The translations under genes and the position numbers were made by a program. Below, one piece after another: positions 19,889 to 20,115 of a DNA stretch of 37,286 nt. Within the stretch, counting starts at the first letter, position 1. Every line of letters starts with the position of its first letter. The DNA is taken from assembly GCF_003334815.1 (NCBI RefSeq), contig NZ_QOWO01000036.1; one strand, written 5' to 3'. The notes under the pieces are model-generated. The model did no database searches, was not told the origin of the DNA, and was given only the letters and a program-made list of their open reading frames with translations. The DNA comes from Escherichia coli. Lineage in GTDB: Bacteria > Pseudomonadota > Gammaproteobacteria > Enterobacterales > Enterobacteriaceae.

Positions 19889-20065
19889 TTAACTCAAACC
19901 GAGTTGTTTCAGGATTGCTTTACGCAATGGTTCTTTAATCTCATCGCAGGGGTGACGCGGCATGACACTGCGCCTCCCATGAAACCTGAGTTTCAAATGG
20001 TTGCTGCCATTCGCTACATCGACGCCCTGAGATTCGAGCCAACGTCTGAACTCGCTTTGTTTCAC
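19889..20065 (-). CDS. hicA: HicA mRNA-interferase toxin
   Basis: Hand-translated: GTG start at 20065 preceded by GGGAGG; 58 aa MKQSEFRRWLESQGVDVANGSNHLKLRFHGRRSVMPRHPCDEIKEPLRKAILKQLGLS. Below the ORF-track cutoff. Confidence 0.8.
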   Translation of the reverse strand: MKQSEFRRWLESQGVDVANGSNHLKLRFHGRRSVMPRHPCDEIKEPLRKAILKQLGLS

Positions 20066-20097
20066 ATCGCCTCCCTGCCGCTGAGTATATCAACAAA

Positions 20098-20115
20098 GTA
20101 AACATTAGTGTTTAC
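20098..20115. promoter_or_regulatory. Perfect palindrome in the hicAB promoter region (operator candidate)
   Basis: GTAAACA-TTAG-TGTTTAC, 33-50 bp upstream of the hicA start; overlaps a -10-like TATACT on the minus strand. Confidence 0.4.

Follow-up and report, generated by a model that had tools for sequence, protein, structure and literature searches.

An interrupted inverted repeat upstream of hicA is very probably the HicB operator of the hicAB toxin-antitoxin operon in Escherichia coli

The hicAB locus of E. coli K-12

We analysed a window of 37,286 nucleotides, the whole stretch of DNA considered here, from an E. coli genome (assembly GCF_003334815.1, contig NZ_QOWO01000036.1). In it lies hicAB, the chromosomal type II toxin-antitoxin operon known from E. 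coli K-12. In the locus comparison, the region from 19400 to 20320 was 100% identical to K-12 MG1655, and positions convert to MG1655 coordinates as 1,509,286 + (20065 - window position). When 5,426 complete E. coli genomes were searched by megablast, 5,416 contained the region, with hicB, hicA and yncJ as its annotated genes. The operon is ordered toxin-first, with both genes on one strand and a 45-nt spacer between them (Table 1). Among the relatives compared, yncJ is a neighbour of hicAB in Escherichia alone, and ydcR in no genera but Escherichia, Citrobacter and Raoultella. The original prediction, made from the DNA letters alone, had placed a hicA of 58 aa with a GTG start ahead of hicB, and the ORF list and the RefSeq annotation agree. 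Its recognition of a known hicAB pair is likewise supported by the identity to MG1655, RefSeq, the Pfam domains and the matches to the chains of PDB 6HPB.

Table 1. Features of the hicAB region, in window coordinates
Feature	Position	Strand	Basis or relation
hicB CDS, 138 aa, antitoxin and HTH repressor	19427-19843	-	RefSeq
hicA CDS, 58 aa, GTG start, mRNA interferase toxin	19889-20065	-	ORF list, RefSeq
hicA Shine-Dalgarno, AGGGAGG	20070-20076	-	Sequence; 4 nt before GTG
Putative extended -10 of P2, TGaTATACT	20084-20092	-	Sequence
Interrupted inverted repeat, GTAAACA-N4-TGTTTAC	20098-20115		Repeat finder and pattern search
Escherichia-conserved block, candidate CRP-S region of P1	20131-20157	-	Invariant alignment columns
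yncJ	20287-20517	+	Upstream of hicA, divergent
rlhA/ydcP			Upstream of hicA, divergent
ydcR			Downstream of hicB

HicA matches the Pfam family HicA_toxin (PF07927) over residues 5-57 (E = 3.7e-7), and its top match over the full length is chain A of PDB 6HPB (E = 1.9e-36), an entry whose chains A and B were deposited as E. coli HicA and HicB. His23, the catalytic residue of HicA (PMC8138530), sits in the conserved GSNHLKL motif of the translated ORF. HicB carries the HicB_lk_antitox domain (PF15919, residues 3-67) followed by an HTH_3 domain (PF01381, residues 88-134). Its full-length top match is chain B of 6HPB and 6HPC (138 aa, E = 8.8e-87), and 6U0I was matched as well. NCBIfam returned no family for HicA, HicB or YncJ, and PADLOC gave only marginal matches at the level of the HTH. 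The GTG start of hicA is kept in nearly all aligned relatives, and the Shine-Dalgarno sequence is conserved among them as GGAGG or GGGGG. The start of hicB is ambiguous: the longest ORF begins at ATG 19864 (145 aa), and the alternative is ATG 19843 (138 aa), the choice of both RefSeq and the crystallised protein.

Two further observations concern the setting. In E. coli K_EC180, IS91-family transposase genes stand beside yncJ and replace the whole hicAB-ydcR side of the locus. At the end of the window, the Rfam sok antitoxin RNA (RF01794) was matched at 37134-37286 on the plus strand (72.4 bits, gathering score 59), presumably marking the sokB/hokB type I toxin-antitoxin locus of K-12.

This operon has been studied before. 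HicA is reported to be toxic through mRNA cleavage and to be neutralised by HicB (PMC8138530, PMC11594946). HicB of E. coli forms a dimer in which the two HTH domains are separate (PMC11594946), and on the basis of the published work RegulonDB now lists it as a transcription factor (PMC10767902). K-12 hicAB is reported to have two promoters: an upstream P1 with a CRP-S site, which is activated by Sxy and expresses hicA and hicB (PMC8138530), and a downstream P2, which is repressed by HicB and whose mRNA yields HicB only (PMC8138530; PMC11594946). Excess HicA is said to lift the repression of P2 by HicB (PMC8138530), the operator hicO is described as an inverted repeat within P2 and HicB binding is reported on a 147-bp upstream fragment (PMC11594946), the P2 transcript is described as truncated at the hicA ribosome-binding site (PMC7167474), and P1 is reported as not repressed by HicB.

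The inverted repeat and its conservation across species

The repeat upstream of hicA consists of two 7-nt arms, GTAAACA (20098-20104) and TGTTTAC (20109-20115), which are 100% complementary and separated by 4 nt. Read in the sense of hicA it is GTAAACA-CTAA-TGTTTAC, lying at -50 to -33 from the hicA GTG and 21 nt upstream of the Shine-Dalgarno sequence (MG1655 1,509,236-1,509,253). The four spacer bases, TTAG on the plus strand and CTAA in the hicA sense, are not complementary to each other, and we therefore describe the element as an interrupted inverted repeat. It had originally been called a perfect 18-bp palindrome; the location and the perfect 7-nt arms stand, while the claim fails for the central four bases.

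A repeat of this kind is not rare. The 37-kb window has 33 perfect repeats in which the arms are 7 nt and the spacer 0-8 nt long, against 23.9 +/- 5.5 in dinucleotide shuffles, and at least one is found in 9% of shuffles of the 221-nt hicA-yncJ intergenic region. By itself, the repeat is therefore within chance expectation (not significant), and whatever significance it has is owed to where it lies and to its conservation in other species. These counts speak for a chance repeat without function, with HicB binding elsewhere in the 147-bp gel-shift fragment, and so does the accessible literature, which states only that HicB binds this fragment and an "inverted repeat" (PMC11594946). On the other side, the repeat is the only one of such quality in hicA's upstream region, and the comparison with other species weighs heavily against chance.

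For this comparison, a HicB scan of species-representative genomes yielded 18 loci, and tblastn against plasmids and phages added more distant relatives. The upstream regions were stacked without gaps on the hicA start codon. A box was observed at about -50 to -33 in Escherichia (K-12, E69 and E. whittamii), Citrobacter, Raoultella, Superficieibacter, two Pantoea species, Serratia and Brenneria salicis, as well as in Cronobacter phage ENT39118, Moraxella phage Mcat2 and Paraburkholderia phage IPK. The set thus spans six enterobacterial genera beyond Escherichia and three phages, with flanks that are unrelated between genera, and the identity to E. coli HicB drops to 48-50% across it. In nine non-Escherichia loci, the 150 nt upstream of hicA hold a match of 12-13 out of 14 to the E. 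coli arms, a score that was equalled by 0-4 of 2000 shuffles (at most 0.2%) in each locus. Moreover, given the few genera in which yncJ or ydcR adjoins the operon, the box follows hicAB and not the genes around it. With the box at the same offset in these nine loci despite unrelated flanks, we consider a chance repeat very unlikely. Within E. coli itself, the 40-nt operator region was found in 3,856 genomes at 95% identity or more and in 3,335 at 99% or more.

Across 23 boxes, seven positions never change (T2, A3, A4, A7, G13, T15 and A17) and C6 and T12 hardly do. Position 5 and the mirror position 14 are free to vary, every spacer is A/T-rich and 4 nt in length, and the consensus is xTAAnCA-W4-TGnTTAx. 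This pattern bears on a second alternative, in which the repeat would not be a DNA operator but would fold, in the 5' leader of the RNA made from P1, into a hairpin that influences stability or the translation of hicA. As RNA, the region folds into a hairpin of 7 to 10 bp, the minimum free energy is -14.6 kcal/mol for 63 nt, 91% of the pairs in the 23 boxes are standard, and some two-sided changes occur at position 1/18. However, position 5/14 varies without compensation (5 unpaired and 5 G-T out of 23), and none of the six distal boxes of the TTGAC type described below is paired at position 3/16; both fit the conservation of half-sites and not that of a stem. In addition, the -10 overlaps the right arm in most relatives, which places the box upstream of the start and leaves it untranscribed, the Shine-Dalgarno sequence is not sequestered, and the fold beats shuffles by a modest margin only (z = -2.0). 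We regard the hairpin as highly improbable. Separately, a CUUUGUU/AACAAAG stem around the hicA Shine-Dalgarno sequence and start codon was considered and rejected, being absent from the minimum free energy fold and scoring z = -0.64 against shuffles.

The third alternative, a site of another regulator (CpxR for the divergent yncJ, or CRP-Sxy for P1), is the least probable and has hardly any chance of being correct. It draws on the GTAAA contained in the arms and on the intergenic region shared by hicA and yncJ, which we take to be a Cpx-regulated gene. The CpxR box is a direct repeat, GTAAA-N5-GTAAA. In this repeat the GTAAA pentamers point in opposite directions, neither strand has a second direct copy at a distance of 10 bp, and the box persists in genera and phages without yncJ, and the CpxR reading was dropped on these grounds; for CRP, the repeat is unlike TGCGA-N6-TCGCA.

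Based on these findings, we conclude that the repeat is very probably the HicB operator, and the best overall explanation is that it is hicO, the operator of P2 in the K-12 hicAB operon (probability roughly 0.87). No other strong inverted repeat lies between the ribosome-binding site and the candidate P1 region, and we infer that this one is almost certainly the published hicO; a full-text literature search for the operator sequence as a string gave no match. A HicB operator at hicAB is an already known feature, so that its prediction here is correct but ordinary.

More distant HicB relatives, at 41-43% identity (those of a Mannheimia phage and an Arsenophonus plasmid), have repeats of the type TTAGCA-W-TGCTAA at the same offsets. 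In place of PKQEITR, the recognition helix predicted for them is RPPEVQR or NSPEIQR. Such co-variation of protein and site, seen in two specificity groups only, would be of the kind expected of a cognate operator. A tentative HicB code could be read from it, in which xTAAnCA-W4-TGnTTAx changes to TTAGCA when the recognition helix goes from Q..T to P..Q. Taken jointly with the two-operator origin proposed below, we give this code slightly less than an even chance.

The two promoters and a proposed mechanism

The original prediction had the repeat overlapping the likely -10 region upstream of hicA. This is probably not so, as the best -10, TGaTATACT, lies downstream of it: the extended element begins 5 bp and its TATACT hexamer (20089-20084) 8 bp downstream of the repeat. 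Citrobacter and Raoultella have TATAAT where E. coli has TATACT. We consider it likely, from the sequence, that TGaTATACT is the -10 of the HicB-repressed P2. Transcription would then be predicted to start at about 20075-20078, inside or at the 5' edge of the Shine-Dalgarno sequence, which fits the description of the P2 transcript as truncated at the RBS. With the -10 at this place, the repeat would span about -39 to -22 of P2, that is, the -35 and the spacer and not the -10. Weak -10-like hexamers do occur in or at the edge of the right arm as read in the hicA sense, namely TAATGT (20102-20107) and TACTTT (20095-20100); they stand at the site of the -10 of the relatives and may in E. coli belong to P1.

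A sigma-70 consensus scan called no promoter upstream of hicA, and the proposed P2 escapes it owing to a poor -35. The only promoter that the scan called nearby (19869-19842, minus strand) overlaps the start codon of hicB and was set aside as chance level, with 3 such promoters found against 2.2 expected. The supplements of the Cappable-seq (PMC4782308), SMRT-Cappable-seq (PMC6131387) and Conway 2014 (PMC4161252) studies held no start-site entry for MG1655 1,509,22x-27x or for hicA.

Upstream of the repeat, the Escherichia-conserved block includes TGCGG at 20153-20157 and AGTGCTATTTTCGAGC at 20131-20146. The hallmark of CRP-S sites is one conserved half-site of the TGCGA type (PMC6728893), and the block offers TGCGG, TGCTA-N6-AGCAA and TCGAG-N6-ACACA as candidates, with no clean 5-N6-5 match. 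Two candidate placements of the CRP-S site imply a P1 start near 20088-20095, in which case the operator would overlap the -10 of P1. Such an overlap would be awkward, as it does not fit the reported insensitivity of P1 to HicB.

Two other symmetric elements were noted in the intergenic region. An imperfect palindrome, TTTGC-N8-GCAAA, is found at 20204-20221, midway between yncJ and hicA. An inverted repeat GGAA-N6-TTCC (GGAATCTTCCTTCC, minus strand) lies at 20182-20195, about 120 nt upstream of hicA, and is kept as such in Escherichia and Citrobacter and as GAA-N6-TTC in Raoultella, despite diverged surroundings.

Taking the repeat as hicO, the following mechanism can be proposed. For HicB binding, its relief by HicA, the two promoters and the truncation of the P2 transcript, this mechanism relies on the literature; what was observed in this work is which locus this is, how the repeat is built and where it lies, its conservation across species and its fixed offset. 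That the repeat is hicO and the exact -10 and start of P2 are what we infer. The HicB dimer would place its two separate C-terminal Xre-type HTH domains on the two half-sites, GTAAnCA and its inverse. As the centres of the half-sites are 11 bp apart, about one helical turn, one dimer could reach successive major grooves on the same face of the DNA. Bound HicB would cover about -39 to -22 of P2 and block RNA polymerase. The upstream, CRP-Sxy-dependent P1 would make the full hicA-hicB message, and with HicB in excess this message would come from P1 alone, at its basal or Sxy-induced level. When HicA exceeds HicB, the HicB-DNA complex would be destabilised and P2 would fire. Because P2 would start inside or at the Shine-Dalgarno sequence of hicA, its transcript would translate hicB and not hicA; the hicA cistron would lack a usable RBS, and antitoxin could be restored with no added toxin. 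The predicted autoregulation by the antitoxin thus needs qualification: the conservation of the box makes a HicB operator very probable, but the repressed promoter P2 yields HicB only, whereas P1 yields both proteins (PMC8138530).

Two-box relatives, natural loss of hicA and comparison with known systems

A second, distal box of the HicB type was observed in ten loci (L009, L014-L017, L024, L025 and L028-L030), at about -72 to -54 or -86 to -66 from the hicA start. It stands 21 bp upstream of the proximal box in Pantoea, Serratia, Brenneria and Superficieibacter, with a TTGAC -35 in its right arm, and 33-34 bp upstream in the Cronobacter and Paraburkholderia phages, where the -35 lies between the boxes. 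The TTAGCA-type loci of the Mannheimia phage and of Arsenophonus plasmid paNv resemble the phage layout, with boxes about 32 bp apart. These distances correspond to two or three helical turns. In the Arsenophonus plasmid paIh2, the distal box is present and the proximal position is degenerate, and in the Moraxella phage nothing better than a weak distal-like match of 9/14 was seen, at 33 bp upstream. Where the proximal box of two-box relatives is intact, it overlaps the -10 (TACTAT, TATACT, TATAAT or TAATAT) and is followed by a leader of 25-30 nt with the Shine-Dalgarno sequence and a conserved CATGTTCAACAGA motif.

This leader motif, CA(T/A)GTT(C/A)AACA(G/A)A, is common to nine distant loci (L009, L014-L017, L024, L025, L028 and L029), at about -27 to -13. 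It contains TGTT-N-AACA, an everted arrangement of the inner half-site bases of the operator. In the E. coli clade, the TATACT -10 region stands where the relatives have this motif.

Escherichia, Citrobacter and Raoultella have the proximal box only, without the leader motif and with a -10 downstream. A search of E. coli for a distal box at -21 or -33 bp from the repeat found nothing matching at 10/14 or better; at the -33 position, TTAGTGCTATTTTCGAGC has only a loose likeness to TTAGCA-type boxes and was not counted as one. From this comparison it is conceivable, at odds a little below even, that the E. coli repeat is the promoter-proximal survivor of an ancestral module with two operators and a single promoter. 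Tied to the survivor reading, and tentative to the same degree, is the proposal that the ydcR-linked clade (Escherichia, Citrobacter and Raoultella) lost the distal box and the leader motif and gained a strong -10 located 11 bp downstream. The arrangement suggests, as a hypothesis, that the "antitoxin-only" P2 may have arisen through the loss of the distal operator together with this 11-bp downstream shift of the -10. If true, the shift of the -10 alone would turn an ordinary autoregulated toxin-antitoxin promoter into an "antitoxin-only" P2.

We also found that hicA is frequently lost in nature, with one or the other of two inactivating deletions (examples in loci L003 and L002) present in 35% of the complete E. 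coli genomes. The first, of 444 bp (window 19665-20108), is present in 1,093 of the 5,426 complete genomes. Its left end falls inside the repeat (GGTAAAC|TTCGCC); lost with it are the operator's right arm, the putative P2, hicA and roughly 60 codons from the start of hicB. The second, found in 809 further genomes, is a frameshifting deletion of 22 bp within hicA (approximately 19909-19930) that keeps the operator. In the allele with the 22-bp deletion (L002, O22:H8 strain 154), the putative P2 -10 has changed from TATACT to TATGCT. In L007 (E. coli SCPM-O-B-8794), hicA has a W9* nonsense codon and 11 nt (TTGTTGATATA) that include the putative -10 are missing; in L005 (Escherichia sp. E1V33), hicA has a 1-bp deletion and TATACT is kept. 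The putative P2 -10 is thus damaged in two of these three further lineages with a dead hicA. P2 may be dispensable once the toxin is gone, although a sample of three lineages is too small to say. A similar pattern, with an intact hicB and a deleted hicA, has been reported for H. influenzae (bioRxiv 10.1101/330480).

Compared with known systems, the locus is the same as the K-12 hicAB operon with hicO, P1 and P2 of earlier reports (PMC8138530, PMC7167474, PMC10865869, PMC11594946), with no sequence difference. It shares with K-12 the toxin-first order, the inverted repeat just upstream of the hicA RBS and a good putative -10, from which a transcript would start at the RBS. In hicA3B3 of Yersinia pestis, two 15-bp inverted repeats, BS1 and BS2, flank or overlap one promoter, and the main operator overlaps the -10 (PMC11594946). 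This layout resembles the two-box one seen in the E. coli system's relatives from Pantoea, Serratia, Brenneria and phages. The operator sequences differ, however, and E. coli has one box only; furthermore, PMC11594946 describes HicB3 as a ribbon-helix-helix tetramer, in contrast to the HTH dimer of E. coli HicB.

In hicAB of Burkholderia pseudomallei, as in E. coli, a single palindromic HicB site lies in the promoter and excess HicA lowers the affinity of HicB for DNA, but HicB has an RHH DNA-binding domain, the site is reported to lie over the predicted -10 and a CRP site, and no dual-promoter arrangement with a toxin-silent transcript is known to have been described (PMC8138530, PMC11594946). 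The toxTA operon of Haemophilus influenzae is alike in combining a CRP-S/Sxy promoter with a downstream, antitoxin-repressed and antitoxin-only P2, and in the common natural deletion of its toxin gene; unlike hicAB, it encodes unrelated proteins of the RelE/ParE type and has its P2 inside the toxin gene (PMC6957337).

The K-12 hicAB operon is already characterised by genetic, biochemical and structural work, and the literature has a name for its operator. What is gained here is a cleaner annotation, in which the coordinates are fixed, the probable relation of operator and -10 is corrected and the repressed promoter is the antitoxin-only one. That hicA is often lost in nature, through a deletion that in one case ends inside the operator, is an incremental point. 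Similarly, the consensus box could aid the prediction of operators of HTH-type HicB proteins, and the contrast between one-box and two-box loci could inform how toxin-antitoxin operons of reverse gene order evolve safe expression, both as incremental advances.
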